A stretch of DNA of 64,000 nucleotides, taken from the NCBI GenBank assembly GCA_963692905.1, contig OY843583.1, forward strand, positions 21,703 to 85,702, given 5' to 3'. The DNA comes from Spirochaetia bacterium. GTDB lineage: Bacteria > Spirochaetota > Spirochaetia > G963692905. The notes beneath the pieces are model-generated. The model made no database searches. It saw only the letters and a program-made list of their open reading frames with translations, and was not told the DNA's origin. Position numbers and translations under genes: made by a program. This document shows positions 9,894 to 64,000 of this stretch, one piece after another (the stretch's first letter is position 1; every line of letters starts with the position of its first letter).

Positions 9894-9915
9894 ACTTAAA
9901 TTATCCTTCTAAAAA

Positions 9916-10200
9916 TCACTTTTGAACGCGAGAGGTGCTGGAGGAGATAGGGCGTATTTTTAGCTCTTTTATTACTTTTTGAGCACGCTCGCGATCGTTA
10001 CGCATTAAATACTGTATTAATCGCCGACGCTTCCCAATAAGTTGCAAGAGTCCCCGTCGTGTAGAGAAATCCTTCCGATGCACCTTAAGATGACCAGTCA
10101 AATGATGAATACGCTCACTAAAAAGCGCAATTTGCGCGGCACTATTTCCACTATCTTTGACATCTTTCCCAAACTTCTCAATAATATTTTTCTTAAGCAT
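9916..10200 (-). CDS. rpsO: 30S ribosomal protein S15.
   Basis: S15 core LTGHLKVHRKDFSTRRGLLQLIGKRRRLIQYL. It lies immediately upstream of pnp. Confidence 0.85.
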   Translation of the reverse strand: MLKKNIIEKFGKDVKDSGNSAAQIALFSERIHHLTGHLKVHRKDFSTRRGLLQLIGKRRRLIQYLMRNDRERAQKVIKELKIRPISSSTSRVQK

Positions 10201-10215
10201 TAGCTTTCTTTATCT

Positions 10216-10258
10216 TTACTGACATAGTGGCAATATAGCATACAATAGCCACTATGTC
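10216..10258 (-). promoter_or_regulatory. Perfect 11-bp inverted repeat (gacatagtggc...gccactatgtc) with a 16-nt loop. It lies 16 nt upstream of the rpsO start codon and is a possible leader hairpin or operator.
   Basis: Seen directly in the sequence. The position is analogous to regulated rpsO-pnp leaders in other bacteria. Confidence 0.4.
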
Positions 10259-10276
10259 AAGCTTTTTACAGCTTTT

Positions 10277-10306
10277 TGTAAAAGAAAGTTAAAAATGTTC
10301 CTTTCC
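10277..10306. repeat. Copy of dispersed repeat module C (tgtaaaagaaagttaaaaatgttcctttcc).
   Basis: Near-identical 21-mer shared with 10608, 19733, 54236 and 54347. Confidence 0.8.
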
Positions 10307-10548
10307 TCTCGCTATACTAGAGGATTATGACTAGAGCAACAGTATGTATGTGCATCAAAGAGATAGCTCTATACAACGCCGCTATGAGACTTGCCATGCA
10401 CCAATTGCACTTTGGTATATGGTGATAAGTGACGAGAGGCGCGATAGTATGCTCTTCGCAAGAGATGCACAGGCATACAGGCCCTTGCTCTTGCCAATAA
10501 TCTCTTTTAGCAAATATGGGGTAAACACTTTTTTGTGTCTCCTAAAGA

Positions 10549-10645
10549 GCCATTAAATTATTAGATGTATATAAGGGTGTACAGAAATGAGGAATTTTGT
10601 AAAAGAAAGTTGAAAATGTCCCTTTGAAAGAACCATAAAGAGAGA
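10549..10645. repeat. Composite dispersed repeat containing modules A, B and C in order (gccattaaattattagatgtatataagggtgtaca ... tgtaaaagaaagttgaaaatgtccctttgaaagaacc).
   Basis: Module A+B is about 90% identical to 33250-33290. Module C is identical to copies at 54236 and 54347. Confidence 0.85.
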
Positions 10646-14688: not shown

Positions 14689-14710
14689 CTAATGCTCTAT
14701 CAATGTGCTA

Positions 14711-15754
14711 TCAATGTGCTGTCAATGTGCTATGAGGAAAGCTGCTTCGGGAATGGACCTCCCAGCTAGTATTATCGCGGTATGATCGGGGATAGTCCTG
14801 CAGCTGTGGATGATGGTCAGCCAGCGCCGCCACCATGGCGCCATTATCGCTACAGAGAGAGGCGCTAGGGCAAAAAGTGGTATAGCGAGCGCGGGAATTG
14901 AGCGCCGCGCGCAGGGCGGAGTTTGCGGCTACACCACCGCCCATAACTAGGGTTGATAATCCGGTCAGTGCCGCCGCGTTATCAAAGGCCTTCACCAGCA
15001 TATTTATGGCTGCCTGCTGAAGAGCCGCGCAGATATTTTCTGTGCTCTGAGGAAATCTGTGGTTCCAAAAGCTGTCCCGCTGATGTATGACGGCGCTCTT
15101 AAGACCAGAGAAAGAGAGGTCACATCTATTTTTGAGGCCAGCAGAGGGAAAGGCGGCGGCCTGAGCGCTACCCGATTGAGCCTGTTGCTCTATGGCCGGG
15201 CCACCGGGGTAGCCTAATCCTAGATGAACCGCAACTTTATCAAAGAGCTCACCACAGGCATCATCAATTGTGCCTCCTAGCAATTCGAAATGAAAAGGGT
15301 CGACGCTAATACCTATCAAGCTATGTCCGCCAGAGATAACCGCGCCTAAATAGGGATAGGGGACTCTCTGCTCTATCTGTATGGCATACAGGTGCGCCAA
15401 AATATGGTTAATGGCTACTACCGGAATATGCCACGCGTAGGCTAACGACCTAGCAAAGGAGAGACCCACCATAAGCGAGCCGCTAAGACCCGGTTCGGTG
15501 GTAACTGCGATGGCCGCTATCTGCTCTTGCTTAAGGGCTGCCTGATGCATAAGCGCCCGAAAGCTATCCAAAATAGTCGCTACATGGGCCCGGGAGGCCA
15601 ATTCAGGCACTACACCATGATAGGGGGCATGGATGGCGATCTGTGTGGCAGTTACTTGGGCAATGAGGGTTGTGCCATTCTCAATCAGCGCCAAGGAACA
15701 TTCATCACATGAACTTTCAATTCCTAAAATTATCATGATTAGCGATATAGTCAA
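14711..15754 (-). CDS. tsaD: tRNA N6-adenosine threonylcarbamoyltransferase TsaD.
   Basis: ILGIESSCDECSLAL N-terminus and a Kae1/Gcp family fold. The start is probably the internal Met at 15736. Confidence 0.85.
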   Translation of the reverse strand: MTISLIMIILGIESSCDECSLALIENGTTLIAQVTATQIAIHAPYHGVVPELASRAHVATILDSFRALMHQAALKQEQIAAIAVTTEPGLSGSLMVGLSFARSLAYAWHIPVVAINHILAHLYAIQIEQRVPYPYLGAVISGGHSLIGISVDPFHFELLGGTIDDACGELFDKVAVHLGLGYPGGPAIEQQAQSGSAQAAAFPSAGLKNRCDLSFSGLKSAVIHQRDSFWNHRFPQSTENICAALQQAAINMLVKAFDNAAALTGLSTLVMGGGVAANSALRAALNSRARYTTFCPSASLCSDNGAMVAALADHHPQLQDYPRSYRDNTSWEVHSRSSFPHSTLTAH

Positions 15755-32891: not shown

Positions 32892-33249
32892 TTCTATACT
32901 ATTGTAGCATCTATGGCAAGTTACTGTCCATACTCCCTAAGGAAAATAAAGAGAGAGTTGACCGCTCTCCAACAAGAAATACAGCGGAGAGCTGCGTTTC
33001 TGCCTACAATAAAAAGGGCCATGAAAACATGATAACTATTGAATATAGAATGACCAATTAGATATGGAATGGGTAATCAAAAAAGGCCGAGGGCCGGCGA
33101 TTAAACACAAGTCCTCAACCCATTATTATTTAGAAGGAAGGTTTCTTATGAAGCTTAATTATTTTAGTTGTTTGTAGGATACAACAGTCTTGCCATTAAT
33201 CTTTCTTAGCAAGTATAGGATACAGGCCTTTTTTGCCTCTCCTTAAAGT

Positions 33250-33290
33250 GCCATTTAATTATTAGATGTATATGAGGGTGTACAATGGTT
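33250..33290. repeat. Copy of dispersed repeat modules A+B (gccatttaattattagatgtatatgagggtgtaca).
   Basis: About 90% identical to 10549-10585. Confidence 0.8.
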
Positions 33291-33394
33291 GAAGAGTGAT
33301 AATAGCTTAACCATTAGGAAATTAAAAGAGAGGGCTGACCTCCTCTCTCTCCTCACTCCCGAAACTGTGCCACGGAGAAATGAGACTCGCTACA

Positions 33395-33424
33395 CAAAAA
33401 ATAGGGAGGGGTTAAACCCTCCCT
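33395..33424 (-). terminator. Intrinsic terminator for the paralog-1 lipoprotein gene (stem AGGGAGGG/CCCTCCCT, loop of 6 nt, then AUUUUUU on the minus strand).
   Basis: Hairpin and T-run read directly from the sequence. It lies 52 nt downstream of the gene end. Confidence 0.55.
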
Positions 33425-33475
33425 ATCCTATCTTTAGACGCGCTTCTCTACCTCTGGCCCTTTTGCGGCTATCTA

Positions 33476-34471
33476 TTATTGATAGCGGAGTGCATAGAGG
33501 GCATCATTTGTAAATCCCACCATATAGAGGGTGCTGCCAATGGCCGCTAGACCGGCTGGTTGGACTTCGCTCACGCCAAAGTTGGTTGCACTGCCCACTT
33601 GGGTTGCGCTACCGGTAATAGTGTCTAGGGTAACCAGGACATCACTGGACGCCGCCGCCATATAGAGGGTGCCACCAATGGCGGCCAGGCCGGCAGGATT
33701 GTCTTCGCCCTCGCCAAATTCGGTTGCACTGCCTACCCGGGATGCCATACCATCGGGGGTCATATCAGCGGAGTCAATGTTGATGGTATAGAGGGCAGTT
33801 TGAGCCCGTCCTATCATATAGAGGGTGCCATCAATGGCGGCCAGGCCGGTTGGTTGGCCTTCGCCCACGCCAAATTGGCTTACACTGGCATCACTCACCA
33901 GGGTGGCTCTACCGGTAGTAGTATTTAGGGTATAGAGGACCGCTTGGCCCCATCCCGTCATATAGAGGGTGTCACCAATAGCTTCCAGAGCATATGGTGA
34001 GATTTCGCTCACGCCAAAGCCGGCGGGCGTATTTCCCACCTGGGTTGCTGTACCGTTATCGGCGGAGCCATCCTCGTCACTAATATCTAGGGTATACAGG
34101 ACATCATTTGTAAATCCCACCATATAGAGGGTTTCGCCGATGGCGGCTAGGCCGCTTGGAGCGTCTTCGCCCTCGCCAAATTGGTTGGCCCTGCCTATGC
34201 GGGTGGCCTCTCCTACCGCTACTTGCCCACAGCTTCTGCCAACTACATCAGTGGTGCCATCCAGTCTATAGAGCAGATTGCAGCTAGCACAGCGGGTTAG
34301 ACCATCGGCAGTGGCATCTCTGAGCGATGAGGCGCTGCCGTTGGCACAGGCATATCTATATTGGGATCCACCACCAGGACCTCCCCCTCCATTATTCGCA
34401 GCCGGACAGGCTACCAATACTACCAGGGCCACCAATACCATTAAGGCGATCCCCAGGGTGCCCCCAAGCAT
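33476..34471 (-). CDS. Repeat-containing lipoprotein, paralog 1. It has an N-terminal Cys-containing segment and six copies of a roughly 48-aa repeat (consensus ...FG.GE..P.GLAAIG.TLYM.G....LYT.N...G), which looks like a beta-propeller.
   Basis: Signal peptide with lipobox LVAC and a Gly-rich linker. The internal repeats are visible by eye. There is an RBS (AAGGGGAGG) upstream of the ATG. Confidence 0.6.
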   Translation of the reverse strand: MLGGTLGIALMVLVALVVLVACPAANNGGGGPGGGSQYRYACANGSASSLRDATADGLTRCASCNLLYRLDGTTDVVGRSCGQVAVGEATRIGRANQFGEGEDAPSGLAAIGETLYMVGFTNDVLYTLDISDEDGSADNGTATQVGNTPAGFGVSEISPYALEAIGDTLYMTGWGQAVLYTLNTTTGRATLVSDASVSQFGVGEGQPTGLAAIDGTLYMIGRAQTALYTINIDSADMTPDGMASRVGSATEFGEGEDNPAGLAAIGGTLYMAAASSDVLVTLDTITGSATQVGSATNFGVSEVQPAGLAAIGSTLYMVGFTNDALYALRYQ

Positions 34472-34534: not shown

Positions 34535-34607
<73 letters not shown>

Positions 34608-34977
34608 GCGTTTTACGAGTGCTCAGTCGCTCCTTCACTCTCTCATTCTCTCCTAAAAGGAAAGAAATTGGATTATGTAATATCATTACTATAATCCTCC
34701 TTATTTATATTTATTTGGTAGGCACAAAATGAACTATAACTAGGGGAGAGGAGCATAGCTTCCCTCCGCATAGCACACTATAGCCAACTGGTGCATTACC
34801 ATAGGTATATGTATACCCTATTGGATATGTAATGGCAAGGTTTTTTTAAGAAATTTAGGAAAATAAAGAGCCATCCTGACCCCTTTCTCCAGCAAGAAAT
34901 GTAACGGAGAGCTGCGTTTCTGCCTACAATAAAAGGAAATTAAAGAGAGAACTGGCCGCTACTTCGGCAATTTCTGC

Positions 34978-35007
34978 ACAAAAAAAGGGAAGAGTTAAAC
35001 CCTTCCC
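34978..35007 (-). terminator. Intrinsic terminator for the RCC1-repeat lipoprotein gene (stem AGGGAAG/CTTCCCT followed by a T-run on the minus strand).
   Basis: Hairpin and T-run read directly from the sequence. It is homologous to the terminator at 33395-33424. Confidence 0.5.
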
Positions 35008-35123
35008 TATCCTATTGGAATCGCGCTTCTCTGTCTCTGTCCTGTACACCCTCACTCCCTAGAAGCATTGTTACACTCTCTAATCCAACTCAATGGGTTT
35101 TCTCATCTCGGCTAACGGGAAGC

Positions 35124-35816
35124 CTACAGATCAACAAAGGGGAGATTATCGCCCATCTCACCGGGCCCATCGCCTCGAGCATCGCCATCTTCCAGACCTA
35201 GCTGGCCAACAGTGTTTCTTCCCCAACACTTAACGCGGTCATTATCCAACAGGGCACAGCTGTGATTGACACCTGCATCTATCTGGGTGGCAGTTCGGCC
35301 GCTCCCTAGATCAATAGCTGGGAAACTATCGCCCATCTCACCGGGCCCATCGCCTCGAGCATCGGTATCGCCCAGACCTAGCTGGCCAACAGAGTTATAT
35401 CCCCAACACTTGACGCTTCCATTGTCCAACAGGGCACAGCTGTGACCTATTTCAGTATTAACTCCACTAATTGTTACTAAATTTCCATTGGCTACTATCT
35501 GAGTAGCGGTTCGGCCAGTGCCTAGACCAATAGCCGGGATAGTAGCCACCCCATCAGTGGTGCTTTCGCCTAGGGTGCGGGCATGACCCTGACCTAGCTG
35601 GCCAACAGTGTTTCTTCCCCAACACTTAACGCGGTCATTATCCAACAGGGCACAGATATGCCCGCGAGCCGCTGCCACCTGTGTGACAGAGGCCAATCCC
35701 GGACCAGGGCCAGGCGCAGGCGCAGCCGGACAGGCTACCAATACTGCTACTAAAAGTAGCACCAGGGCTCCTAAAATAGCCCCTAAAGCGCCATTAAGAA
35801 TCTTATTTCTAATCAT
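35124..35816 (-). CDS. RCC1-repeat lipoprotein, paralog 2.
   Basis: Signal peptide with lipobox LVAC and a Pro/Gly linker. At least four RCC1-type repeats are present (HxCALLDNxxVKCWGxNxVGQLG[LQ]GD). Its 5' end and flanks are homologous to paralog 1. Confidence 0.65.
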   Translation of the reverse strand: MIRNKILNGALGAILGALVLLLVAVLVACPAAPAPGPGPGLASVTQVAAARGHICALLDNDRVKCWGRNTVGQLGQGHARTLGESTTDGVATIPAIGLGTGRTATQIVANGNLVTISGVNTEIGHSCALLDNGSVKCWGYNSVGQLGLGDTDARGDGPGEMGDSFPAIDLGSGRTATQIDAGVNHSCALLDNDRVKCWGRNTVGQLGLEDGDARGDGPGEMGDNLPFVDL

Positions 35817-54149: not shown

Positions 54150-54224
54150 ATTACCTATTCCTTATTATCGTTTTAATTTAGTTATGGTGATTATATCAGA
54201 TAATAATAGCACTGTCAACTATAT

Positions 54225-54449
54225 GTACACCCTCTTGTAAAAGAAAGTTGAAAATGTCCCTTTGAAAGAAAGATGAGGGGAGCGCTCTACCCTCACCATC
54301 TTCCACGAAGATCCTCGGTGTGCGATGGAGGTGTAGTACACCCTCTTGTAAAAGAAAGTTGAAAATGTCCCTTTGAAAGAAAGATGAGGGGAGCGCTCTA
54401 CCCTCACCATCTTCCACGAAGATCCTCGGTGTGCGATGGAGGTGTAGTA
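54225..54449. repeat. Tandem direct repeat, 2 x 111 bp. Each unit contains module B (inverted), module C and a GC-rich palindromic hairpin (gatgaggggagcgctctaccctcaccatc).
   Basis: The two units are essentially identical. It lies between the rny start and the 3' end of the BNR-repeat lipoprotein gene. Confidence 0.9.
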
Positions 54450-54776: not shown

Positions 54777-55964
54777 TTACCAGGCTCTGGTTATGGTGCC
54801 GCCGCTCCCCACGGCAAGAAAGCGATCATTGCCATACACCACACCACGCAGATTTGCACTTCCGCCATCACGGGAGCTCCACTGTAGGCCATCATTGCTT
54901 ATGACTACTGTGCCAGAATTTCCTACTGCTACCCAGGTGGAATTGCCGTAGGTGATGCCGTAGAGAGAACTCCCGGCATCGCTAGGGCGAGTACTCCAGC
55001 TGATACCGTCGCTACTAGTGAGGATGGTACTCCCACTAGGACTACTACTTCCCACCGCTACAAACATACCATTATGAGAGGCAATGTCGGTGAGATTTTG
55101 ATTCGTGCCACTTTCATGAGCACTCCACGTAGTAGCGTCGCTACTGGTGAAAACCGAACCGCCACTCCCCACCGCTACATAGCGGTTGGTGCCGTAGGCG
55201 ACTCCTAGAAGATCACGCGTCACATTGGGAGTATGCACGGTCCATCTGAGGCCGTCAGCGCTAGTGAGCACTGCTCCTCCCCCTCCCACTGCCGTAAATC
55301 CCCCATCAGCGAAGATAATACTGTAGATATTGGTAGCAGTGCCACTTTCTGAGGAGCTCCAGCTCCTCCCATCACTACTAGTAAGGATAGCACCTTGCAC
55401 TCCTACTGCCACAAAGGTATTGTTCCCATAGGCGATGTCCAAAAAGGAGGCGTTGCTACCGGAGGCAACACTCCAGCTAGTGCCATCGCGACTAGTGAGG
55501 AGTGCGCCACTCCATCCCACTGCCACAAAGGTGGCATTTCCATAGGAAACCGCATTAAGATCAGTTGAAATACCGCTCTCCAGGGCTTCCCACTGTGTTG
55601 CAGTACATCTCTCTACGCCATCACTGGTGGCCTCAAGGCGTACTGGGCTCCCATTACTACACCCATACATATACATGTCTGGGAGACGACTAGGGGTTGA
55701 TGGTGATGCGAGCAATGGCAGCGCCGTCGGTGCGGCACAACCTATAAGGGCAAATCCCCAGATCATAGCGAGGAGTATCCCGCCACTCCATCGACATAGC
55801 GTGCTCCCCCATAGCGGGGTGCACACAATAAGTCCTCTTTTTAGCAGGCGCCTGCGCGCACCCCTTAAGAGGGAGGTACATGCGCTACATGTACCATACC
55901 ATGTTAAAATACAATTAACCTTTCTCATAAAGAACTCCTTGTTAAAAAAAATTTTGTCGTACAA
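54777..55964 (-). CDS. BNR/Asp-box repeat beta-propeller protein (Ycf48-like). Probable lipoprotein.
   Basis: At least six repeats of the form LTSSDGxSWS...YGNxxFVAVG, which match the Asp-box SxDxGxTW. Candidate lipobox ALIGC. The true start is uncertain. Confidence 0.55.
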   Translation of the reverse strand: MYDKIFFNKEFFMRKVNCILTWYGTCSACTSLLRGARRRLLKRGLIVCTPLWGSTLCRWSGGILLAMIWGFALIGCAAPTALPLLASPSTPSRLPDMYMYGCSNGSPVRLEATSDGVERCTATQWEALESGISTDLNAVSYGNATFVAVGWSGALLTSRDGTSWSVASGSNASFLDIAYGNNTFVAVGVQGAILTSSDGRSWSSSESGTATNIYSIIFADGGFTAVGGGGAVLTSADGLRWTVHTPNVTRDLLGVAYGTNRYVAVGSGGSVFTSSDATTWSAHESGTNQNLTDIASHNGMFVAVGSSSPSGSTILTSSDGISWSTRPSDAGSSLYGITYGNSTWVAVGNSGTVVISNDGLQWSSRDGGSANLRGVVYGNDRFLAVGSGGTITRAW

Positions 55965-56722
55965 TCGACATATATAAATATAGGAAAGGTATGCTAATAT
56001 TGCGTGGTTTTTTTAAAAAATTCCTCAGTAGCCGCGGGTAAGAGGCGCCCATGGCTTATCCTCCATGGCGTAGATCTAGGGGCTGTCCCACTTAACTGAT
56101 TTTTGTCCATTTCCTATAGTAAGGAGATGCAAAAACCAAGATTGTCGTCTAGTATCATTAAGACGCTCATTGATTATTTTGTGCTTGGCGCTACTACTCA
56201 GGTCTATGGCCTAAGATCTATGACTTATATCTATGGCGTAGATCTATAGCGCTCATGAATGTGCGAATAGAGCAGTCATGAAAGAGATCCCCACCATGAG
56301 CCGGCGCTACCGGCTTATGCGCTATCCTCCTAGTAACCCGTGGGACACACTTCTGGTAGAGGTATGCTGCAAGAGATGCGTAAGTCATCTCTGGTGCACT
56401 TTCAAAGGTAGCTTCTAGTGAAGGAGGCCTTTCTCAATGAAGGCGCTTGCATCTTGCCTATTGGGTATGAGGCGGAGCTCCTCTCTCTATCGCTCTTAGG
56501 TTGCGAGAGATGAAAAAACTATTAGCGTATAGTCTTGCTCACAGAGGAAGGGTGGAGGAGGTAGTAGAGTAGCTTTTTGTGGCATTTTGTGTCGGAGAGA
56601 GGGGGCAAATGTCGCTTTATTTTCCGCTTAAAAGGTGCAAAAGCCTGTACAAATACTGTTATATCTTGTTACTATATATTCAACTTACAGTCCGTATGGG
56701 CTAAGGGCTATCATATTGGTTT

Positions 56723-56760
56723 GAGGGTTTGTGCTTGGTCGTAAACCCTCGGCCTTTTTT
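56723..56760 (+). terminator. Terminator-like hairpin on the plus strand (GAGGGTTT/AAACCCTC, 12-nt loop, then ggccTTTTTT). No annotated upstream gene accounts for it.
   Basis: Seen directly in the sequence. The T-run is only on the plus strand. Confidence 0.4.
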
Positions 56761-56939
56761 AATTAATTATTACCTATTTAATTACCCATCCCATATTCAA
56801 CAGCCACCATGTTTTTCATGGCGCTTTTTTATTGTAGGCAGAAGCGCAGCTCTCCGTGGTATTTCTTGTCGGAGAAAGGGGCCAGCGCTCTCTTTATTTT
56901 CCTTAGTGAGGGTGTACAAGTACTTGCACACCATACGCA

Positions 56940-56945
56940 TATAAT
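56940..56945 (+). promoter_or_regulatory. Perfect TATAAT -10 hexamer 15 nt upstream of the 56961 start codon. The transcript would have a short leader or be leaderless, and no SD sequence is visible.
   Basis: Hexamer read directly from the sequence. The -35 assignment is ambiguous. Confidence 0.3.
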
Positions 56946-56960
56946 ATATACTTTGCTACT

Positions 56961-58058
56961 ATGAGTGCACCAGCCTCAGATAAGAAGCCACCAGCTCCCC
57001 GCTCCCCGGGCGCATCAGGTACCAAAGACTATACCCACGCCTTTGATCAGGCCGAGTTGGATGAGATCTATCGCACCATTCAAGCTAGAATACGGACCCA
57101 ACGGAGTAAACAGAGCAGCCTCAAAAGCAGTATGCTTGAATCCGCAGCCCCTAGAAAGAATAGCCGCACCCTGCCGCTCATGGTGATTATTCCCTCAATT
57201 CTCATTGCTTTGGTAAGTCTCTTTCTGCTTCTTGAGCGATTTACCGAGAGTCAAATACTCTCTCGTCTCTTTCCCAATTTACGAGACACCAGCGAAGCGC
57301 CTAGTAATGTGAATCAAAATCAGGTAATCCGGAGAATTCAAGATGAGGCGCAGCAACAAATTGCGGATCTACAGATCGCCCTCCTCAACCAACAGCGTAC
57401 CTTGGAATATGTAGAGGTAGAGCAGGAGCGCATAGTCGTCGATCCCAATGATGCACAGCAACAGAGAAACGCTGAGGAGCTTCAGAGAAGCGCTGAGGAG
57501 CTTCAGAGAGGACAGGAGGCACTCCAAGCTGCGGTGCAGCAGCAACGTCAGTTGGAAAGTGAACTCTCCCAACTTGAAAGTCAGGCGGCGCGCTCATTTT
57601 CGGATTACAATGCGCTTGCGGTGCAGCAGGAGCGTCTGGATCTCTTGTTGAATCAATATCTCTCACTTACCACCAATATCCGAGATGCCATGCAGGCCAA
57701 TAATTCTAGCGCAGTGGAGCGAGAGGTGGGACGACTCCGAAGCTATCTCAATACCTTTTCCGCTAGCGAGGGTGGGATATTGCAACCGCTCTTTCTGAGT
57801 GGCGGTAATTTTATTGCTGCAGCTGATGCCTATCTTGAGGCGCTTCGCACCAGCGATCGTCTTGAAGAGGCAGCAGAAGCGACCGCAGCTTTAGATACGC
57901 CAGTAGCTCCGGAGGGCGGAGACGCTCCCTTAGGGGCCCGAGTAGCGGAGTTGGAGCGCACTATTGAGGGGCTGAGCGCTGAGATAACCAACATCCGTCT
58001 CCGAAAAGATATTTGTGAGGATGATCTCACCCTCTGTAAGCGCGATCAGGTAAATTAG
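56961..58058 (+). CDS. Hypothetical single-pass membrane protein with a long extracytoplasmic coiled-coil and a tandem 7-aa repeat (AEELQRS/AEELQRG).
   Basis: Lys/Arg-rich N-terminus, a TM helix (LPLMVIIPSILIALVSLFLLL) and Gln/Glu/Leu-rich heptad-like sequence. It is followed 13 nt later by the cyclase gene. Confidence 0.5.
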   Translation: MSAPASDKKPPAPRSPGASGTKDYTHAFDQAELDEIYRTIQARIRTQRSKQSSLKSSMLESAAPRKNSRTLPLMVIIPSILIALVSLFLLLERFTESQILSRLFPNLRDTSEAPSNVNQNQVIRRIQDEAQQQIADLQIALLNQQRTLEYVEVEQERIVVDPNDAQQQRNAEELQRSAEELQRGQEALQAAVQQQRQLESELSQLESQAARSFSDYNALAVQQERLDLLLNQYLSLTTNIRDAMQANNSSAVEREVGRLRSYLNTFSASEGGILQPLFLSGGNFIAAADAYLEALRTSDRLEEAAEATAALDTPVAPEGGDAPLGARVAELERTIEGLSAEITNIRLRKDICEDDLTLCKRDQVN

Positions 58059-58071
58059 GGGAAGATAGCCA

Positions 58072-59784
58072 ATGAAGATACGGAGTAGATTAATGCTGAG
58101 TATTGTCCCGCCAGTGATTGCGCTTTTTGTGGTAAGCGGTATCATTGGCTTCTCAGTCAGTCGTACCGGTCTCTATAATCTCCAGCGGGATTCCTTGCGC
58201 TTTAAGGCGCAGCTACTGAGAAACCAGCTAGTCGCACAATGGAATCTTCTGGTGGATTTTTCACTCTTCTCTGAACCGGGATATATACAGACCGCACAGG
58301 AGGCCATACAGGACTTTGCCACCACCATCCTCAAACCTCCGGCCGATGATGCGGGCGAAGATGCCACAAGTTCTCAACTTATCTTTGCCGTCATTTCCGA
58401 AGCAGAGAGTGAATTGCGCTCCCTTGCCATGAGCACCGATCCCAATCTGGTCATTTCGCAAGAAAATCTTGCGACCCTCTTTGCTGAGGGTGACAATGAG
58501 CAGGGGGAGATACCATTTCACACCGCAAGGATAGGAAGAGAGCAATATGCCTATACCGCCTTCTATTTTGAACCCTTTCGCTGGACGATATTTGTGGGCG
58601 AACGGGTGCGAATATTTAATGTTAGTGTGCGTATTGTACAGCAGGTATTGCTTATTACCACCCCACTTTTTATCATTGTGCTCCTTATTATCATCTTTAT
58701 TCTCTCTCAGAGCTTAACCCGTCCACTCAGTAACATGGCCAAAAGCGCCCGTACCATTATGGCTGATACCCTAAACATCAAGGCCGATATTCCCTATGAG
58801 TATAATGATGAGGCAGGAACCCTAGCACTTACCTTTAACTCCATGTTCACGGAGTTAGATGGCACCTATGAGGACTTAAAACAGTATGCCTTTGAGAGTG
58901 CTGTAGCACAGCGCCAAGAGAAACGAATCCGCACTATTTTCCAAAAATATGTACCGCAAGATCTTATTAATCGCTACATTAAAAACCCTGAATCGCTCTT
59001 AGTGGGAGAAGATCGTCCCATGGCGGTACTTTTTAGCGATATTCGCAGTTTTTCCGCTATTTCGGAAAAAATGAAGCCAGATGAGCTGGTGCGTTTTCTT
59101 AACCGTTACTTAGCGCAGGTTGTTGAGGTGATTACCAACGCCGAGGGGGTAGTCGATAAGTTTATTGGTGATGCCGTGATGGCGCTCTTTGGCGCGCCGG
59201 TGGCCCACAAAGATGATGCGCTTCGGGCGGTAGAGTCGGCACTGAAGATGCTAAACATTGTGGAAGCGCTTAATAAGCAGGCAGCTCGCGATCATGTTCC
59301 CACCTTTAAGATTGGCGTGGGTATCCATGCCGGTATCGCCACAGTAGGGAATATTGGAAGTGATAAAAAAGTAGAGTACACCGCAATAGGAGATACTGTA
59401 AATCTTGCCTCTCGCCTTGAGGGACTGTGCAAGCAGTATCAGCAGCCACTTATTATTTCAGACGCAGTAGGCGAAGCGGTGAAGAATCATCATCAGCTGC
59501 GCTTTATTGATAAGGTGATAGTGAAGGGAAAGAGTGATACCACCCAGATCTTCACGGTGCTCAGAGAGAAGCAGCCGGATACCCAGGCGCTGCGCCTCTA
59601 CCATAGCGGCATCGCGCATTACTATAAGGGGGCCTTCCAAGAGAGTCAGCGTGAGCTTAAAAAAGCGCATCAGCAGGGGTTGGATGATGCCCTTACCCAG
59701 CAGTTTTTGGAGCGCACGGCTGAGTTGATACAGCATCCACCACCGCCACAATGGAATGGCGCGGTGCCCTTAGAGAGTAAATAG
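58072..59784 (+). CDS. Membrane-bound class III adenylate/guanylate cyclase with a periplasmic sensor region and a HAMP domain.
   Basis: Two TM helices flank a periplasmic domain of about 150 aa. A HAMP domain is followed by the CHD motifs AVLFSDIRSFS and KFIGDAVMALFGAP. Confidence 0.8.
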   Translation: MKIRSRLMLSIVPPVIALFVVSGIIGFSVSRTGLYNLQRDSLRFKAQLLRNQLVAQWNLLVDFSLFSEPGYIQTAQEAIQDFATTILKPPADDAGEDATSSQLIFAVISEAESELRSLAMSTDPNLVISQENLATLFAEGDNEQGEIPFHTARIGREQYAYTAFYFEPFRWTIFVGERVRIFNVSVRIVQQVLLITTPLFIIVLLIIIFILSQSLTRPLSNMAKSARTIMADTLNIKADIPYEYNDEAGTLALTFNSMFTELDGTYEDLKQYAFESAVAQRQEKRIRTIFQKYVPQDLINRYIKNPESLLVGEDRPMAVLFSDIRSFSAISEKMKPDELVRFLNRYLAQVVEVITNAEGVVDKFIGDAVMALFGAPVAHKDDALRAVESALKMLNIVEALNKQAARDHVPTFKIGVGIHAGIATVGNIGSDKKVEYTAIGDTVNLASRLEGLCKQYQQPLIISDAVGEAVKNHHQLRFIDKVIVKGKSDTTQIFTVLREKQPDTQALRLYHSGIAHYYKGAFQESQRELKKAHQQGLDDALTQQFLERTAELIQHPPPPQWNGAVPLESK

Positions 59785-59850: not shown

Positions 59851-59952
59851 TCACTTCCCTTTCTCTGGAGTGATTGGCGATAGTGCTGTAGGAGCTTTTC
59901 TCTCCGCGGCAATTACCGTCGGTGCTGCCTTGGTTCGGAAGGCTGAGTGGGC
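59851..59952 (-). pseudogene. Degenerate fragment of the valS 3' end (copy A), a footprint of segmental duplication.
   Basis: Translates to ...LEAHSAFRTKAAPTVIAAE, matching the valS C-terminal LEAHSAFRSKAAPTVIAAEE. The 58-nt core ctccgcggcaattaccgtcggtgctgccttggttcggaaggctgagtgggcctccag is shared with 61270-61326 and 62714-62770. Confidence 0.7.
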
Positions 59953-60102
59953 CTCCAGGAGAGGAGTATCCCCTAAGCGAGCGCAATACACTATTTTCAC
60001 ATATAATAGCTCTATATTCAAAAATTTCCTTGTAAAAACAACAAAACTATATTGCACACTATTAAGTTATGCTATACAATAACTTATATACAAGGATCTC
60101 TT

Positions 60103-61116
60103 ATGAAATTTTTACGATATATATGCATCGCATTATTGTTTGTGGAAGCTACTGTAGTGGGAGCGGCGCCCCTGCATGATGCGGTGGTCTCCCAAAACCG
60201 CCCCCGTGTGGGGCGACTTTTAGCGCAGGGTGCTGATCCCAACCAGCATGATGAGGCGGGCTTCACCCCCCTGCATTGGGCTATCCGCGATAGACAGTTT
60301 CTAATGGTGGAATTGCTTCTAGATGCCGGCGCCGATCCCACTTTGGCCACCGCCCCACCTGAGGAGAGTGGCTATAGCCCCCTCCACTTTGCCGCCTTTG
60401 AGGGAAACGCGGCCATTGTGCAGCTCCTGTTGGATCAGGGCGCCAACATAAACCGGCGCAGCAAACTGGGCGACACCCCATTACATGTCGCGGGCGCCCA
60501 GGGCCATAGAGAGGTGCTGGAATTGTTGCTGGAGCAGGGCGCCTCGGTGGCCCTGCAAAACGAGGCGGGGCAACGGGCCGCCGAGGTAGCCACCGAGGAG
60601 CTTCAGGAGCTTATCCCCACGAATGCGCTAGGGTGGTTCTTGCGCCCCCTAATAAGCTATGGCTATAACTTTTTCGCACCTTCGGAGCTCTTCTTGGCTC
60701 GCTCCTCATTGCAGCTGGGCGCCCAGCTACAGGTCCGCTGGGGTATCTTTCCGTTATTTCCTGAGAGCTGGATTGTCGATCTTCGTCTGAGGGGGACGGC
60801 GCTCTCCCGGGAGGGCGCTCCCAATCCTCAATTCTCTCTCTCACTCACCACTACCATTCCATATATACCTATTTTTAATGGATATGTTGCTAATGCAGAT
60901 GTGGTTTTTGAGTGGTATTTTTTTAGATTGGGCGCAATATTTAATCTCACCACCTTGGGATTGTCCCTAGCAGTTAGTCCGGGGATTAGTCTGACCATTG
61001 AGGCCATCAACAGTACCCTCTTTGCTGAAGTTGAAATAGTAGCACCAGTCAGCGGCGGTGGTGGTGAACAAGGCATTATACTCGTAGTAGGCTATGCCTA
61101 TCAGTTTCGGCTCTAG
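60103..61116 (+). CDS. Secreted ankyrin-repeat protein with a C-terminal domain resembling an outer-membrane beta-barrel (paralog 1).
   Basis: RBS AAGGATC before MKFLRY. Signal peptide, three or four ANK repeats (GFTPLHWA, GYSPLHFA, GDTPLHVA) and a C-terminal 170 aa with alternating hydrophobic and aromatic residues ending GYAYQFRL. Confidence 0.7.
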   Translation: MKFLRYICIALLFVEATVVGAAPLHDAVVSQNRPRVGRLLAQGADPNQHDEAGFTPLHWAIRDRQFLMVELLLDAGADPTLATAPPEESGYSPLHFAAFEGNAAIVQLLLDQGANINRRSKLGDTPLHVAGAQGHREVLELLLEQGASVALQNEAGQRAAEVATEELQELIPTNALGWFLRPLISYGYNFFAPSELFLARSSLQLGAQLQVRWGIFPLFPESWIVDLRLRGTALSREGAPNPQFSLSLTTTIPYIPIFNGYVANADVVFEWYFFRLGAIFNLTTLGLSLAVSPGISLTIEAINSTLFAEVEIVAPVSGGGGEQGIILVVGYAYQFRL

Positions 61117-61159
61117 AGCAGATAAGAACAATAGGGTGCCGGTGCTGGCATCCATCATC

Positions 61160-61326
61160 CAGCAGCAGATAGCATGCCTTCGGCATTCTAAAGAGTAAGT
61201 GTCTCTCACTTCATCTTTTCTAGGTCGGCCAGCAGGCGCTGCAGAAGCTTCTCTCTCTCCGCTAATTGGAGCGCCCGCTGCTCCTCCGCGGCAATTACTG
61301 TCGGTGCTGCCTTGGTTCGGAAGGCT
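61160..61326 (-). pseudogene. Copy B of the valS 3' end plus its downstream flank. It encodes ...LLQRLLADLEKMK-stop but is detached from valS.
   Basis: About 90% nucleotide identity to 62596-62770. The reading frame is truncated at the duplication junction (gggcctccag). Confidence 0.75.
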
Positions 61327-61483
61327 GAGTGGGCCTCCAGGGGAGGGATGTCCCCTAGGTGAGCGCAATACACTATTGCACATATAATAGCTCCATATTC
61401 AGAAATTTCCTTGTAAAAATAACAAAACTATATTGCACACTATTAAGTTATGCTATATTGTAACTTATAGAAAAGGATCTATT

Positions 61484-62560
61484 ATGAAATTTTTAAGATA
61501 TAAGGTATTACGATACCTATGCATCACATTATTGTTTATGGAAGCTACTGTGGTGGGAGCAACACCCCTGCGTGATGCGGTGGTCTCCCAAAACCGCGCC
61601 CGTGTGGGGCAACTTTTAGCGCAGGGCGCTGACCCCAACCAGCATGATGAGGCGGGCTTCACTCCCCTGCATTGGGCTATCCGCGATCCGCAGTTGCCAA
61701 TGGTGGAGCTACTTCTAGATGCCGGCGCTGATCCCACTTTGGCCACCGCCCCTCCCGAGGAGACTGGCTATAGCCCCCTCCACTTTGCCGCCTTTGAGGG
61801 AAACGCGGCCATTGTGCAGCTCCTGTTGGATCAGGGCGCCAACATAAACCGGCGCAGCAAACTGGGCGACACCCCATTACATGTCGCGGGCGCCCAGGGC
61901 CATAGAGAGGTGCTGGAATTGTTGCTGGAGCAGGGCGCCTCGGTGGCCCTGCAAAACGAGGCGGGCCAACGGGCTGCCGAGGTAGCCACCGAGGAGCTCC
62001 AGGAGCTTATTCCCACGAATGAGCTAGGGTTCTTGCGGTTCCTAGTAAGCTATGGCTATAACTTTACGGCACCTTCAGAGCTCTTCTTGGCTCGCTCCTC
62101 ATTGGAGCTGGGCTTCCAGATGCAGGTCCGCTGGGGTGGGGATTGGTCGCTTTTTGCTGAAAGTTTGACCTTTGATTTTCGTCTGAGGGGGCAGGCGCGC
62201 TCCCGGGAGGGTGCCACTAATTATTTTTCTATATCTGATTCTCAGCCTAATTCTGGATTCTCTCCTTTATTCACCACAACTATTCCATATTTTGCATTTC
62301 TTAATGGATATGTTGGTAATGATGATGTGGTTTTTGAGTGGTATTTGGCTAAAATTGGATTCAGCGCAATTTTAAGGTCCGACAATCAGACTACATTTAT
62401 GCTCGTACTTAACCCGGGGCTTAGTCTGACCATTGAGGCCATCAACAGTACCCTCTTTGCTGAAGTTGAAATAGAATTCCTCGACTTAACCTCTGTCACA
62501 GGTCCATCCTCCCTCAACACTATACTCGTAGTAGGCTATGCCTATCAGTTACGATTCTAG
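61484..62560 (+). CDS. Secreted ankyrin-repeat protein with a beta-barrel-like C-terminal domain (paralog 2), ending in the beta-signal-like ...GYAYQLRF.
   Basis: Over 90% identical to paralog 1 through the ANK region. The C-terminal domain is diverged and carries an insertion (FSISDSQPNSGFSPLF). Terminal Phe. RBS AAAGGATC. Confidence 0.7.
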   Translation: MKFLRYKVLRYLCITLLFMEATVVGATPLRDAVVSQNRARVGQLLAQGADPNQHDEAGFTPLHWAIRDPQLPMVELLLDAGADPTLATAPPEETGYSPLHFAAFEGNAAIVQLLLDQGANINRRSKLGDTPLHVAGAQGHREVLELLLEQGASVALQNEAGQRAAEVATEELQELIPTNELGFLRFLVSYGYNFTAPSELFLARSSLELGFQMQVRWGGDWSLFAESLTFDFRLRGQARSREGATNYFSISDSQPNSGFSPLFTTTIPYFAFLNGYVGNDDVVFEWYLAKIGFSAILRSDNQTTFMLVLNPGLSLTIEAINSTLFAEVEIEFLDLTSVTGPSSLNTILVVGYAYQLRF

Positions 62561-62639
62561 AGTCGACCGGAATGGTGATACCACACTCTCATCCTGCAGC
62601 AGATAGCATGCCTTCGGCATTCTAAAGAGTAAGAGTTTC

Positions 62640-64000
62640 TCACTTCATCTTTTCTAGGTCGACCAGCAGGCGCAGCAGAAGCTTCTCTCTCTCCGCTAAC
62701 TGGAGCGCCCGCTGCTCCTCCGCGGCAATTACTGTCGGTGCCGCCTTGCTTCGGAAGGCTGAGTGGGCCTCCAGACGCTCCCGTAGCGCTGCTAAGCGCC
62801 TTTGGCACTGACTTAATTCCTGCTGCTGACGCTTCATAAGGGGGGCTATTTCCAGAGATTGCGGGAGGGCTACCACTACCTCGCACATCTGCCCCGCTAT
62901 ACCTATCCCCTGGCCTACTGGCTGCGGGGCCGAGAACACCCTAAGTGTGGTGTGGGTAAAAAACTCAATAAGCCCCCGCTCCTCTTTCAGCCAACGGGCA
63001 AGTTCTTCAGCTTGGCTTAAGGCACCAACTACTACCTGGGCCCTAAGCTCCTGCTTAGGGGCTATGGAAAGCTCGCTACGCAGACGTCGCAGAGAGCCTA
63101 CTACATCCTGAAGCAGTGCCATGTGGCGCACGCTTTGCAGGTTGACCCGCTGCGGCCTTTGGGTGGGTTGGGGAGCAATAATCAGCGCCTCATAGCGAGG
63201 AAGGCTGAGAGCCGACACTATCTCTGACAGATGGAGATAGAGCTCCTCGCTGATGAAGGAGAGAAAGGGATGCATAAGGCGCACTATCTCCTCCAAAAGA
63301 ATACAGAGATGGCTGCTGCTGGCGGCTCCTGGATCTTGGCGCTGAGCATATTTGCTATACTCAACATACCAATCGCAGAAATCATACCAAAAATAGGTGT
63401 AAATACTATGCGCCGCCTCGCTAAAGCGATAATGGGCCATGTGGCGCTGTACCTCACCAATAGTCTGATTATGACGATGATAAATCCAGCGATCAATCAT
63501 GTTGTAGCTCAATTCCTCAGACTGTTGCAGTTGGCTCTCGGTAGCTTGCGAAATGATGAAACGGGCGGCGTTCCATACCTTGTTGCAGAAGCGAGAACCC
63601 ACCAAAAAATCCTCCTTAGCCAAGAGAATATCCTGTCCTCCAGCCATCAAATAGGTAAGGCTAAATTTAAGGGCATCGGCGCCGTACTCATCTATTATCT
63701 CTAAGGGATCGATGCCATTACCTAATGATTTAGCCATCTTTCGTCCAGTCTTATCGCGTACTAGACCAGTAAGGTAGATGTTGGTAAAGGGCGCCTTACC
63801 CGTGAACTCCAGTCCGGCCATAATCATCCGCGCCACCCAGAAGAAGATAATGTCGTAGCCAGTAATGAGGGTAGTGGTAGGATAGTAATGCTCAAGATCG
63901 CTGGTTGATGAGGGCCAACCCATGGTGCTAAAGGGCCATAACCATGAAGAGAACCAGGTATCCAGCACATCCTCATCCTGGGTGAGGGCGCTATCCTGTG
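62640..64000 (-). CDS. valS: Valyl-tRNA synthetase, C-terminal part. The N-terminus lies beyond the window end.
   Basis: KMSKS-region KMAKSLGNGIDP, the anticodon-binding domain and a C-terminal coiled-coil (…LLLRLLVDLEKMK). The ORF runs to the window edge. Confidence 0.85.
   Translation of the reverse strand, partial: QDSALTQDEDVLDTWFSSWLWPFSTMGWPSSTSDLEHYYPTTTLITGYDIIFFWVARMIMAGLEFTGKAPFTNIYLTGLVRDKTGRKMAKSLGNGIDPLEIIDEYGADALKFSLTYLMAGGQDILLAKEDFLVGSRFCNKVWNAARFIISQATESQLQQSEELSYNMIDRWIYHRHNQTIGEVQRHMAHYRFSEAAHSIYTYFWYDFCDWYVEYSKYAQRQDPGAASSSHLCILLEEIVRLMHPFLSFISEELYLHLSEIVSALSLPRYEALIIAPQPTQRPQRVNLQSVRHMALLQDVVGSLRRLRSELSIAPKQELRAQVVVGALSQAEELARWLKEERGLIEFFTHTTLRVFSAPQPVGQGIGIAGQMCEVVVALPQSLEIAPLMKRQQQELSQCQRRLAALRERLEAHSAFRSKAAPTVIAAEEQRALQLAEREKLLLRLLVDLEKMK

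Follow-up and report, generated by a model that had tools for sequence, protein, structure and literature searches.

Correia/NEMIS-type elements have described promoter and terminator activities, and Escherichia coli rrnB P1 and tyrT are strong stable-RNA promoters with UP elements or upstream activating sequences. A further precedent is the upstream homology box (UHB) of the ospE/ospF/erp-related genes of Borrelia burgdorferi (Marconi et al. 1996, J Bacteriol 178:5615, as listed in the references of PMC10016077). Here we describe a spirochaete locus that shares features with each of these systems, in an analysed stretch of 64 kb (the window). The locus is an ORF-poor gap of 1032 bp, which runs from ATG 55928 (-) of a beta-propeller gene to the start of a coiled-coil gene at 56961. 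The right half of the gap comprises two copies of a terminator-plus-promoter block, which is also found 22 kb away before a tRNA gene and a surface-protein gene.

We interpret the gap as a mosaic intergenic region at a rearrangement junction, which consists largely of lineage-specific dispersed repeats and contains no dedicated RNA gene (probability about 0.6). An earlier note on this DNA had proposed a small RNA gene or regulatory hub. Its underlying observation, that the gap contains promoter-like and terminator elements and non-random repeats, holds up, while both features on which the proposal was built turn out to be pieces of a dispersed 240-bp cassette. Because the block is reused before tRNA and surface-protein genes, it represents ordinary promoter DNA that has been duplicated, and not a demonstrated small RNA gene or hub. 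The gap and its flanks contain the following features.

54777-55928, minus strand: beta-propeller (BNR-like) putative lipoprotein gene, the left flank, with its start revised to ATG 55928
55955-56022, minus strand: candidate promoter zone of the beta-propeller gene, with an A/T tract at 56010-56022 and a weak TTAGCA-17-TATATG match, read from the sequence
56048-56087, plus strand: array 1, three 13-nt units, CCCATGGCTTATCC / TCCATGGCGTAGA / TCTAGGGGCTGTC, containing the 14-mer ATGGCGTAGATCTA at 56065-56078
56092-56120, plus strand: sigma-70-like promoter match TTAACT-17-TATAGT between the two 13-nt arrays, a consensus match only
56127-56249, plus strand: orphan 40-aa ORF, MQKPRLSSSIIKTLIDYFVLGATTQVYGLRSMTYIYGVDL, whose 3′ end overlaps array 2
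56203-56255, plus strand: array 2, four 13-nt units, TCTATGGCCTAAGA / TCTATGACTTATA / TCTATGGCGTAGA / TCTATAGCGCTCA, containing the second 14-mer at 56233-56246
56256-56548, no strand: unique DNA of coding-like G+C (0.50-0.53) with short ORFs only (31-56 aa), from composition and the ORF list
56549-56626, plus strand: distal degenerate copy of the repeat core (nhmmer E = 7e-19)
56646-56675, plus strand: promoter-like site of the distal copy, TGTACA (56646-56651), an 18-nt spacer and TG-n-TACTAT (56667-56675)
56682-56762, plus strand: hypothetical ~80-nt transcript from the distal promoter-like site to the terminator (predicted fold -23.6 kcal/mol, z = -2.1)
56710-56950, plus strand: proximal cassette, a 240-bp copy, ~80% identical, of 33129-32895(-), from blastn and local alignment
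56718-56760, plus strand: intrinsic terminator, a hairpin plus T6, the first module of the proximal cassette, from scan and folding
56807-56830, plus strand: second, weak hairpin with a T-run, CCATGTTTTTCATGG CGCTTTTTT, kept in the copy before tRNA-Gln
56826-56903, plus strand: core of the proximal cassette, TTATTGTAGGCAGAAGCGCAGCTCTCCG...ATTTCTTGTCGGAGAAAGGGG...CTCTTTATTTTCC (nhmmer E = 3e-24)
56911-56952, plus strand: candidate promoter of the coiled-coil/cyclase operon, from scan, palindrome search and alignment to tRNA-Gln promoters
56961-59784, plus strand: right-flank operon, a coiled-coil membrane protein (56961-58058) and a HAMP-adenylate/guanylate cyclase (58072-59784)

The left flanking gene most likely starts at ATG 55928, 6 nt downstream of an AAGGAG Shine-Dalgarno sequence that can be read at 55940-55935. 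Its translation carries the lipobox FALIGC and gives weak propeller matches in Pfam, and its closest homologues are just ~40% identical and come from other phyla; the gene was probably acquired horizontally. The coiled-coil and cyclase genes of the right flank are kept as a pair in a relative (locus L001), and the gene order breaks exactly at the gap in comparison with the relative, where rny adjoins gatCAB on another contig. Both flanking transcription units very probably have their promoters within the gap. The claim that it lacks any ORF of at least 60 aa is strictly inexact, as a 71-aa TTG ORF spans 56729-56944, and the gap itself is nevertheless real; this ORF lies within the repeat cassette, and the other copy does not preserve its frame. 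Long intergenic regions are common in the 64-kb window.

The central observation is that the right half of the gap belongs to a dispersed repeat family. The 65-bp direct repeat reported by the earlier note is real and longer than claimed: 56559-56625 and 56836-56902 are 75% identical without gaps, and the similarity continues weakly to about 56675 and 56962. It is not a feature of the gap alone, as two further full copies of its core lie ~22 kb away, at 33013-32941(-) and 34934-34858(-), within the following elements.

32895-33129, minus strand: sister cassette, directly 5′ of tRNA-Gln (32891-32819), rplY, pth, tilS and ftsH
34800-34971, minus strand: third full core plus promoter, 5′ of a DUF4394-like gene (34471-33476)

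The proximal cassette consists of three modules, namely the intrinsic terminator, a ~76-nt T-rich core and a sigma-70-type promoter. Its local alignment to the sister cassette (56710-56950 versus 33129-32895) stops 4 nt short of the 5′ end of tRNA-Gln. In blastn, 56746-56927 is 81% identical to 33093-32916(-) over 183 bp, with a range of 78.5-81% for the cassette, and 56827-56903 is 86% identical to 34934-34857(-). A profile of the core finds four full copies in the window (nhmmer E = 3e-24, 1e-22, 3e-21 and 7e-19) and two partial ones; a half-core at 34971-34935 (-) lies beside the third full copy. Similarity thus extends over at least three separate loci (78-86% identity by blastn, four loci by nhmmer), as expected for a dispersed repeat family, whose copies were counted within 64 kb of the source genome. 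The distal core in the gap, a degenerate recurrence at 56553-56625, is the most divergent: it shares 64-67% identity with the other three, and many of the differences are C-to-T changes.

T-rich blocks recur in the core every ~30 nt, and in the proximal cassette 10 nt separate its end from TGTACA. Each of the three good copies is found a short, constant distance 5′ of -35/-10 matches, in the orientation of the downstream gene, and the genes downstream are tRNA-Gln/rplY/pth/tilS, the DUF4394-like gene and the coiled-coil/cyclase operon. The proximal core is 85-89% identical to the other two good cores, above the identity of the promoter segment that follows it, suggesting that the core is either constrained or homogenised. 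Higher conservation of the core could stem from gene conversion instead of function. With respect to a structured cis-regulatory RNA (riboswitch or attenuator) of either flanking gene, folding of the four copies gave neither a consistent nor an unusually stable structure on either strand (z +0.4 to -2.3, with structures that differ per copy). The arrangement suggests that the core is probably an upstream, UP-like promoter element. A second repeat module behaves likewise: it lies directly 5′ of the perfect TTGACA-17-TATAAT and TTGACA-17-TATATT promoters of rny and rpsO, indicating that the reuse of upstream promoter modules is a habit of this genome.

Comparison with the two nearest relatives, both metagenomic and represented by ~64 kb in loci L001, L006, L007 and L008, points to the origin of the family. 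The ~45 nt that directly precede tRNA-Gln are conserved in L007 within the same gene order, and the core and hairpins are absent there, so the tRNA-Gln locus is probably the source and the family probably grew from the tRNA-Gln promoter region. The core is absent from all four loci, including the orthologous region 5′ of the coiled-coil gene in L001, where a 380-bp upstream region has a Shine-Dalgarno sequence and no cassette. The conservation in relatives that the earlier note had named as a check is lacking, as both the core and the 13-nt motif are missing from them; this is a weak test, because the relative with the coiled-coil gene is distant (its coiled-coil protein has 64% amino-acid identity) and another gene lies upstream there. 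Scans of genome contigs found no close genome, and metagenome scans with a 22-mer of the core and with the coiled-coil protein alignment gave no matches.

Transcription of the coiled-coil/cyclase operon most likely relies on the proximal copy. Specifically, a 22-bp near-palindrome, GGTGTACAAGTACTTGCACACC, occupies 56911-56932, and the promoter comprises TTGCAC (56924-56929), a 17-nt spacer and TATACT (56947-56952), for which TGCACA-16-TATACT is an equivalent reading; an extra TATAAT lies at 56940-56945. The homologous promoters are TGGACA-18-TACAAT before tRNA-Gln and TGCACA-18-TACAAT in L007. The -35/-10 hexamers and a spacer within 16-18 nt make this a sigma-70-type promoter by consensus match, in a gap where a consensus scan counts no more promoter-like sites than expected from shuffles. 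The TATACT hexamer ends 8 nt before ATG 56961, and the coiled-coil gene has no Shine-Dalgarno sequence; the predicted transcription start, 1-3 nt ahead of the ATG, would give a nearly leaderless mRNA. A CRP-like operator was considered for the palindrome and rejected, as its half-site spacing misfits TGTGA-N6-TCACA. The palindrome is also present in the tRNA-Gln copy and so is not specific to the cyclase operon. More generally, the cassette precedes tRNA-Gln/rplY and its core precedes the unrelated DUF4394-like gene, so that these elements are not specific to the control of surface-protein or cAMP-signalling genes.

The terminator noted earlier is confirmed. The hairpin at 56718-56754 with its T-run has a predicted energy of -16.4 kcal/mol (z = -3.4), a G+C-rich stable hairpin followed by a U-run as in intrinsic terminators, and the sister copy at 33121-33080(-) reaches -18.1 kcal/mol (z = -2.8) despite changes within the stem that include one U-A to C-G double change. 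By comparison, the hairpin at 56807-56830 has -7.8 kcal/mol in the proximal cassette and only -2.9 in the sister cassette. The terminator follows no protein-coding gene because it is the first module of a copied cassette. Its sister is likewise an orphan, since the gene upstream at the tRNA-Gln locus has its own terminator at 33440-33395, and these two "orphan" terminators hint at a short transcript into the terminator at both loci.

This hint bears on the small RNA reading, in which the distal promoter would fire at ~56682 and transcription would end at 56718-56760, yielding an ~80-nt RNA that acts on the neighbouring surface-protein and cyclase genes in trans or in cis. The distal promoter-like site keeps the 18-nt-spaced geometry of the promoter before tRNA-Gln, both in the window and in the relative, and so the distal copy is perhaps no relic; 40-80 nt further downstream comes a strong intrinsic terminator, the predicted RNA folds at -23.6 kcal/mol (z = -2.1), and the sister terminator is not needed by the gene that precedes it. 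Yet no other member of the family has decayed as far as the distal copy, whose promoter stays below the consensus-scan threshold, the body of the RNA would be ~35 nt of unique sequence plus a repeat-derived terminator, and homologous sequence is absent from the relatives. A duplex-energy screen of the putative RNA against 48 translation-initiation regions in the window, a crude one, gave no target lead, and the neighbouring genes were no outliers. An Rfam scan, which the earlier note had suggested as a check, found only two tRNAs in the whole window at gathering threshold, in agreement with ARAGORN, and at E <= 5 Rfam 15 gave two chance-level matches in 55800-57050 (21 and 17 bits versus gathering scores of 43 and 80) and none for the putative RNA. 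We consider such a gene unlikely, while taking it seriously as an option. A miniature mobile element, in which the 240-bp cassette would transpose in a MITE-like or Correia-like manner with an outward-facing promoter, is very improbable. The family resembles Correia/NEMIS-type elements in its multiple dispersed intergenic copies, four in 64 kb, and in its putative promoter and terminator activities, but the homology borders show no terminal inverted repeats (P = 0.11 and 0.94 versus shuffles) or target-site duplication, and the extent of the copies varies, with the full cassette in two and the core plus promoter alone in others. Viral and JGI metagenome collections gave no matches, and neither did plasmid or phage records. 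Moreover, the cassette ends on the right in the ancestral tRNA-Gln promoter, which is kept in the relative without the remainder, which fits segmental copying and recombination and not insertion. A more elaborate version of copying is improbable as a whole: here the tRNA-Gln promoter region would be a portable "insulated promoter" (terminator, constrained and factor-bound ~76-nt core, and promoter), copied by recombination before surface-protein and cAMP-signalling genes, placing them under growth-rate-type control with leaderless mRNAs, together with a new ~80-nt small RNA made by the decayed upstream copy and the cassette terminator, and with the 13-nt arrays as operators of a regulator.

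The 13-nt arrays and the unique DNA of the left half invite two other readings. The earlier note had reported a palindromic motif repeated three times; two exact copies of the 14-mer ATGGCGTAGATCTA do exist, 168 bp apart, whereas the third, at 56203-56219, has a 1-nt insertion, and the real unit is the 13-nt sequence TC(T/C)ATGGC(G/C)TA(G/T)A in tandem arrays of three and four. Such arrays might bind an oligomeric protein that loops the DNA to control the promoter match at 56092-56120 and/or the beta-propeller promoter. A repeat as long as the 14-mer arises in 0.3% of Markov-1 simulations of the region (P≈0.003), the tandem units flank the promoter-like match, each best unit contains the 8-bp palindrome TAGATCTA, and the 168-bp spacing corresponds to 16 helical turns, in phase. 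Against this, the 13-nt period within an array is out of helical phase, no regulator gene adjoins, the beta-propeller gene has no orthologue in which conservation could be compared, and plain local slippage or duplication would give an identical picture. The motif does not occur beyond chance elsewhere in the 64-kb window and is absent from the ~64 kb of the two nearest relatives, and the palindrome is not enriched in the window (4 sites versus 1.35 expected; 7 of 100 shuffles reach 4). An operator array is thus doubtful; the arrays are best read as a local duplication and may serve as protein-binding sites. The second reading concerns the ORF-poor DNA, especially 56256-56548, which could be debris from at least one gene that was lost where a rearrangement or horizontal transfer took place. 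The G+C content of 0.50-0.53 at 56200-56500 exceeds the 0.37-0.44 of the flanking non-coding parts, the synteny break and the foreign-looking beta-propeller gene adjoin, and extended non-coding stretches are frequent in the window. However, 56256-56548 shows no similarity to the relatives' loci by blastn or tblastx, tblastn with 120 propeller homologues finds no propeller remnants, and ten short ORFs give no Pfam or NCBIfam match at E <= 1 and have intermediate codon scores. We judge gene debris to be improbable, and return to a mosaic of duplicated promoter DNA as the preferred reading.

The zone at 55955-56022 is a probable promoter zone of the beta-propeller gene, and just before the ribosome-binding site lies a small 5-bp hairpin with a T-run at 55970-55955 (-) (-5.1 kcal/mol, z = -1.9). 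The TATAGT hexamer of the match at 56092-56120 ends 6 nt 5′ of ATG 56127, the start of the 40-aa ORF. The public annotation of the source genome calls this ORF as a gene, its exact sequence is a singleton in a public protein collection, and its codon score is intermediate. HMMER found no real homologue among 1.84 billion representatives, and no Pfam or NCBIfam family matched; four apparent matches were dismissed, being highly repetitive proteins in which the summing of repeats inflates the score. A small-protein or type I toxin locus was rejected, as the ORF is a singleton with no true homologue or family match. A replication origin with iterons was likewise rejected: 55929-56960 holds no TTATCCACA-like site with up to one mismatch, the cumulative GC skew is flat, and no rep or dnaA gene adjoins the gap.

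We propose the following arrangement for the gap. The right 400 bp would be two tandem members of one repeat family. The proximal cassette would have been copied from the DNA before tRNA-Gln/rplY, replacing the native promoter and 5′ leader of the coiled-coil/cyclase operon, with its core in the place of a UP or upstream activating element and its promoter embedded in the 22-bp palindrome, so that the mRNA would begin almost at the start codon. The cassette's terminator would shield the operon promoter from read-through from the left. The distal member (56549-56690) would be an older, decayed copy, either inert or firing the ~80-nt transcript that would end at the proximal terminator. The left 600 bp would hold the promoter of the divergent beta-propeller gene, the orphan 40-aa ORF and the two 13-nt arrays flanking a promoter-like site.

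The finding as it stands is of little weight: it explains an odd-looking gap as recycled promoter and terminator DNA, so that neither the orphan terminator nor the private direct repeat stands as an anomaly any longer. It nonetheless offers a small concrete case of promoter recruitment by segmental copying, in which a stable-RNA promoter region appears to have been placed before a signalling operon, and the copying apparently deleted the native leader and Shine-Dalgarno sequence of the operon. It also portrays the intergenic DNA of a poorly sampled spirochaete lineage as a patchwork of a few reusable upstream modules, which is useful for promoter annotation in the source genome and for interpreting rearrangements. 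Should the core turn out to be an upstream element bound by protein, it would open a way into global transcription control in a group that has hardly been studied by experiment.

Among described terminators, the hairpin at 56718-56760 is like Rho-independent terminators in having a G+C-rich stem of 11-15 pairs followed by T6 and in folding far better than shuffles, and differs from the usual ones in that no protein-coding gene precedes it. Like the repeats of the Correia/NEMIS (Neisseria), ERIC (enterobacterial) and BOX/RUP (pneumococcal) types, the cassette is a short multi-copy intergenic repeat able to supply promoters and terminators; unlike them, it has no terminal inverted repeats or target duplications, the ends of its copies vary, and one end is an ancestral promoter that is present in a relative without the repeat. 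As in E. coli rrnB P1 and tyrT, an A/T-rich block lies directly 5′ of the -35 element of a tRNA promoter; here the T-tracts recur every ~30 nt, the block is more conserved between copies than the core promoter, and the core, with its putative UP-like role, does not match the E. coli UP consensus closely. The Borrelia UHB, as far as it is represented by the reference cited above, is likewise a promoter-containing 5′ flanking block common to several spirochaete genes, spread by duplication or recombination and not by transposition, and tied to surface-protein gene families. It differs in that the block described here is common to unrelated genes (tRNA/ribosomal-protein, coiled-coil/cyclase and DUF4394-like), lies on the chromosome and not on prophage plasmids, and brings its own upstream terminator. 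The flanking genes here are not erp-like, and the UHB serves as a functional analogue, alike in organisation only.

The longest gap in the window, 1032 bp (55929-56960) between the divergent beta-propeller and coiled-coil genes, lies at a rearrangement junction and is pieced together from reused modules (terminator, upstream and promoter) and unexplained local repeats. Its features are real but ordinary, and neither gap nor cassette is a member of an Rfam family or an origin. The left flanking gene encodes a beta-propeller (BNR-like) putative lipoprotein (54777-55928, minus strand); its most plausible start codon is ATG 55928, which AAGGAG precedes by 6 nt. The right flanking coiled-coil gene starts at 56961, its N-terminus being kept in 3/3 known homologues. 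The three features reported by the earlier note (motif, direct repeat, terminator) are present close to where it placed them; its description of the gap as ORF-free softens to ORF-poor, given two short ORFs:
56729-56944, 71-aa ORF with a TTG start
56127-56249, plus strand, 40-aa ORF, an orphan, called as a gene in the source genome's public annotation

Window self-comparison, and again a second comparison, reveals that 56746-56927 matches 33093-32916 (minus strand) with 81% identity over 183 bp, and that 56827-56903 matches 34934-34857 (minus strand) with 86% identity. Local alignment stretches the first match to 56710-56950 versus 33129-32895, about 80% over 240 bp. The latter locus stops 4 nt short of the mature tRNA-Gln 5′ end (32891), and tRNA-Gln is followed in the window by rplY, pth, tilS and ftsH. 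Four modules make up the repeated cassette: first an intrinsic terminator, then a second, weak hairpin and T-run, next a core of ~76 nt (TTATTGTAGGCAGAARCGCAGCTCTCCG...ATTTCTTGYYGGAGA...CTCTTTATTTTCC) and lastly a promoter-like segment. A core profile search of the window returned four full and two partial copies:
56827-56902, plus strand, full core c2, proximal copy in the gap (E = 3e-24)
34934-34858, minus strand, full core cC, before the DUF4394-like gene (E = 1e-22)
33013-32941, minus strand, full core tQ, before tRNA-Gln (E = 3e-21)
56553-56625, plus strand, full core c1, distal degenerate copy in the gap (E = 7e-19)
34971-34935, minus strand, partial core (E = 1.4e-3)
33378-33317, minus strand, partial core (E = 7e-3)
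Therefore, the 65-bp direct repeat noticed earlier is real, being c1 against c2, but is one pair within a dispersed family rather than private to the gap. By the same token, the supposedly orphan terminator (56718-56760) exists as the first module of the c2 cassette, not as a stand-alone element. The terminator folds at -16.4 kcal/mol (z = -3.4) in c2 and at -18.1 kcal/mol (z = -2.8) in tQ; the two stems differ internally, including one U-A to C-G double change, and both still fold well.

Copies tQ, cC and c2 are all sense-oriented, a short distance upstream of a gene, and each core is followed by a promoter match (consensus scan/alignment/sequence reading):
tQ, before tRNA-Gln/rplY, TGGACA-18-TACAAT
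cC, before the DUF4394-like repeat protein gene with a short ORF in between, TTGCCA-17-TATACA
c2, before the coiled-coil/cyclase operon, TTGCAC-17-TATACT
From the end of the core it is 10 nt to TGGACA (tQ) or TGTACA (c2) and 19-21 nt to TTGCCA or TTGCAC. The core is T-rich, with T-blocks about every 30 nt, and occupies the same position as the UP and upstream activating sequences in strong stable-RNA promoters. Core identity between copies is 85-89%, higher than that of the downstream promoter segment, suggesting that the core is under constraint or homogenised. Among the copies, the core RNA has neither a consistent nor an unusually stable fold on either strand, and no ORF frame is held in common, which leads us to read the core as a candidate DNA-level upstream promoter element.

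The most diverged family member, c1 (64-67% identity), still pairs TGTACA (56646-56651) with TG-n-TACTAT (56667-56675) across an 18-nt spacer, the geometry of the conserved tRNA-Gln promoter. A putative sRNA of ~80 nt, starting near 56682 and terminating at about 56762, would fold at -23.6 kcal/mol (z = -2.1). The promoter spacing shared with tRNA-Gln speaks for it, as does the terminator upstream of tRNA-Gln, which is also dispensable for the preceding gene, that gene having its own (33440-33395). However, the c1 promoter lies below the consensus-scan threshold, no Rfam match and no homologue in the relatives was found, and a target screen gave no lead; we consider such an sRNA rather unlikely. 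The proposed reading as an sRNA or regulatory hub is only partly supported.

In the left half of the gap, the TAGATCTA-containing motif is indeed repeated, but as a 13-nt unit in two tandem arrays rather than as three separate sites:
56048-56087, plus strand, array 1, 3 units
56203-56255, plus strand, array 2, 4 units
Positions 56065 and 56233, 168 bp apart, carry identical copies of a 14-mer, ATGGCGTAGATCTA; a repeat of that length arose in 0.3% of simulations. Between the two copies lie a promoter-like match (56092-56120) and the point where the 40-aa ORF begins. The arrays could be protein-binding sites forming a loop, which we regard as quite unlikely, or simply a product of local slippage and duplication. 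Elsewhere in the window the motif is no more frequent than chance, and the conservation in relatives that the earlier note proposed checking was not found. An origin or iteron reading was rejected since there are no DnaA boxes and no skew inflection. Searches turned up neither remnants of propeller or other genes nor any plasmid or phage similarity.

The nearest relative reached is a metagenome assembly (ENA ERZ19489113), with protein identities to the window of 83% (L25), 78% (cyclase) and 64% (coiled-coil protein). It retains the order tRNA-Gln, rplY, pth, tilS, ftsH, and lacks the core and hairpins upstream of tRNA-Gln; the pre-tRNA-Gln DNA in common is only the last ~45 nt, TGCACAAT-TCTTGCTATTAATGATACAATAATATAGAAT. 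Because c2 and cC carry a diverged version of this ancestral promoter segment in the alignment, the tRNA-Gln locus is the likely cassette source, and the other copies would be segmental duplications of it. Terminal inverted repeats and target duplications were not found on the cassette; a MITE identity was rejected on that ground, and recombination is therefore a better mechanism for its spread than transposition. Upstream of its coiled-coil gene, the relative has 380 bp that include a clear Shine-Dalgarno sequence and lack the cassette. In the window, cassette homology reaches 10 nt before the ATG, with no Shine-Dalgarno sequence, and the c2 -10 match stops 8 nt short of the ATG, which predicts a nearly leaderless coiled-coil/cyclase mRNA.

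Synteny breaks at the gap locus: in the relative, rny adjoins gatCAB on a contig other than that of the coiled-coil/cyclase pair. For the beta-propeller gene, the relatives offer no orthologue and the matches found include no close one, the best being ~40% identical (Verrucomicrobia, Planctomycetes, Deltaproteobacteria and similar groups); its G+C is 0.52-0.59 against a window mean of about 0.49, and it was probably acquired horizontally. The coiled-coil gene has two paralogues (P0001, P0002) on the same 1.88-Mb (1,881,732-bp) contig as the window, one 99% identical and the other, of 575 aa, 86% identical with its C-terminus replaced by DUF4394-type repeats (a fusion). Such paralogues are consistent with active duplication and recombination in this gene neighbourhood, and point to a putative surface-protein family that has recently undergone duplication and domain shuffling.

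Downstream of the cyclase, a ~1.4-kb tandem duplication (59902-61340 and 61284-62774; segments 89% and 80% identical) yields two paralogous genes of 354 aa (60052-61116) and 375 aa (61433-62560). The DUF4394-like gene (33476-34471) and an RCC1-repeat gene (35124-35816) have 3′ flanks that are 82% identical (33390-33456, 34974-35039) and contain GGATAGGGAGGGTTTAACCCCTCCCTATTTTTT, a strong intrinsic terminator (-20.2 kcal/mol), with a half-copy of the cassette core behind it. The 50-aa ORF that separates the cC promoter from the DUF4394-like gene encloses a run of perfect 6-nt tandem repeats (34537-34604; self-matches at offsets 6-44, 100%). In L001, a contig of the relative, 9740-9920 upstream of the coiled-coil gene holds a direct repeat of its own, of ~35 nt (CTATTGCACCCTGTAGAG... 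and CTATTGCACATTGTAGAT...); both copies resemble a TTGCAC...TATA promoter, so a tandem promoter-like duplication arose there independently. On the same contig, leucyl-tRNA synthetase is broken up over three ORFs in a row (467, 243 and 83 aa; 12906-15595, minus strand). The break reflects a pseudogene or frameshifts in the assembly, and may be a hint of genome decay in the lineage.

A second module, CTTTCAAAGGGACATTTTCAACTTTCTTTTACAA (36 nt), is unrelated to the cassette and likewise sits directly upstream of promoters, namely that of rny (a perfect TTGACA-17-TATAAT; 54218-54190, minus strand) and that of rpsO (TTGACA-17-TATATT); reusable upstream modules therefore appear to be a general feature of the source genome. 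Upstream of rny, a perfect 111-bp tandem duplication (54225-54338 = 54336-54449, 100%; window 54205-54449) holds this module, which recurs twice near 10.3-10.6 kb (10244-10304, 10595-10632). A ~97-nt repeat beginning TGTACACCCTYATATACATCTAATAAT (83.5% identical), which could be a short transcription unit, lies at 33188-33284, between the terminators of the DUF4394-like gene and the tRNA-Gln cassette, and at 10489-10583, just downstream of an rny-type module.

The mosaic gap belongs to a sparsely sampled spirochaete lineage. The cassette resembles the UP and upstream activating elements of stable-RNA promoters. In organisation it is also like the Borrelia upstream homology box, a 5′ block with a promoter that several genes have come to share through recombination (Marconi et al. 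1996, as cited in PMC10016077).
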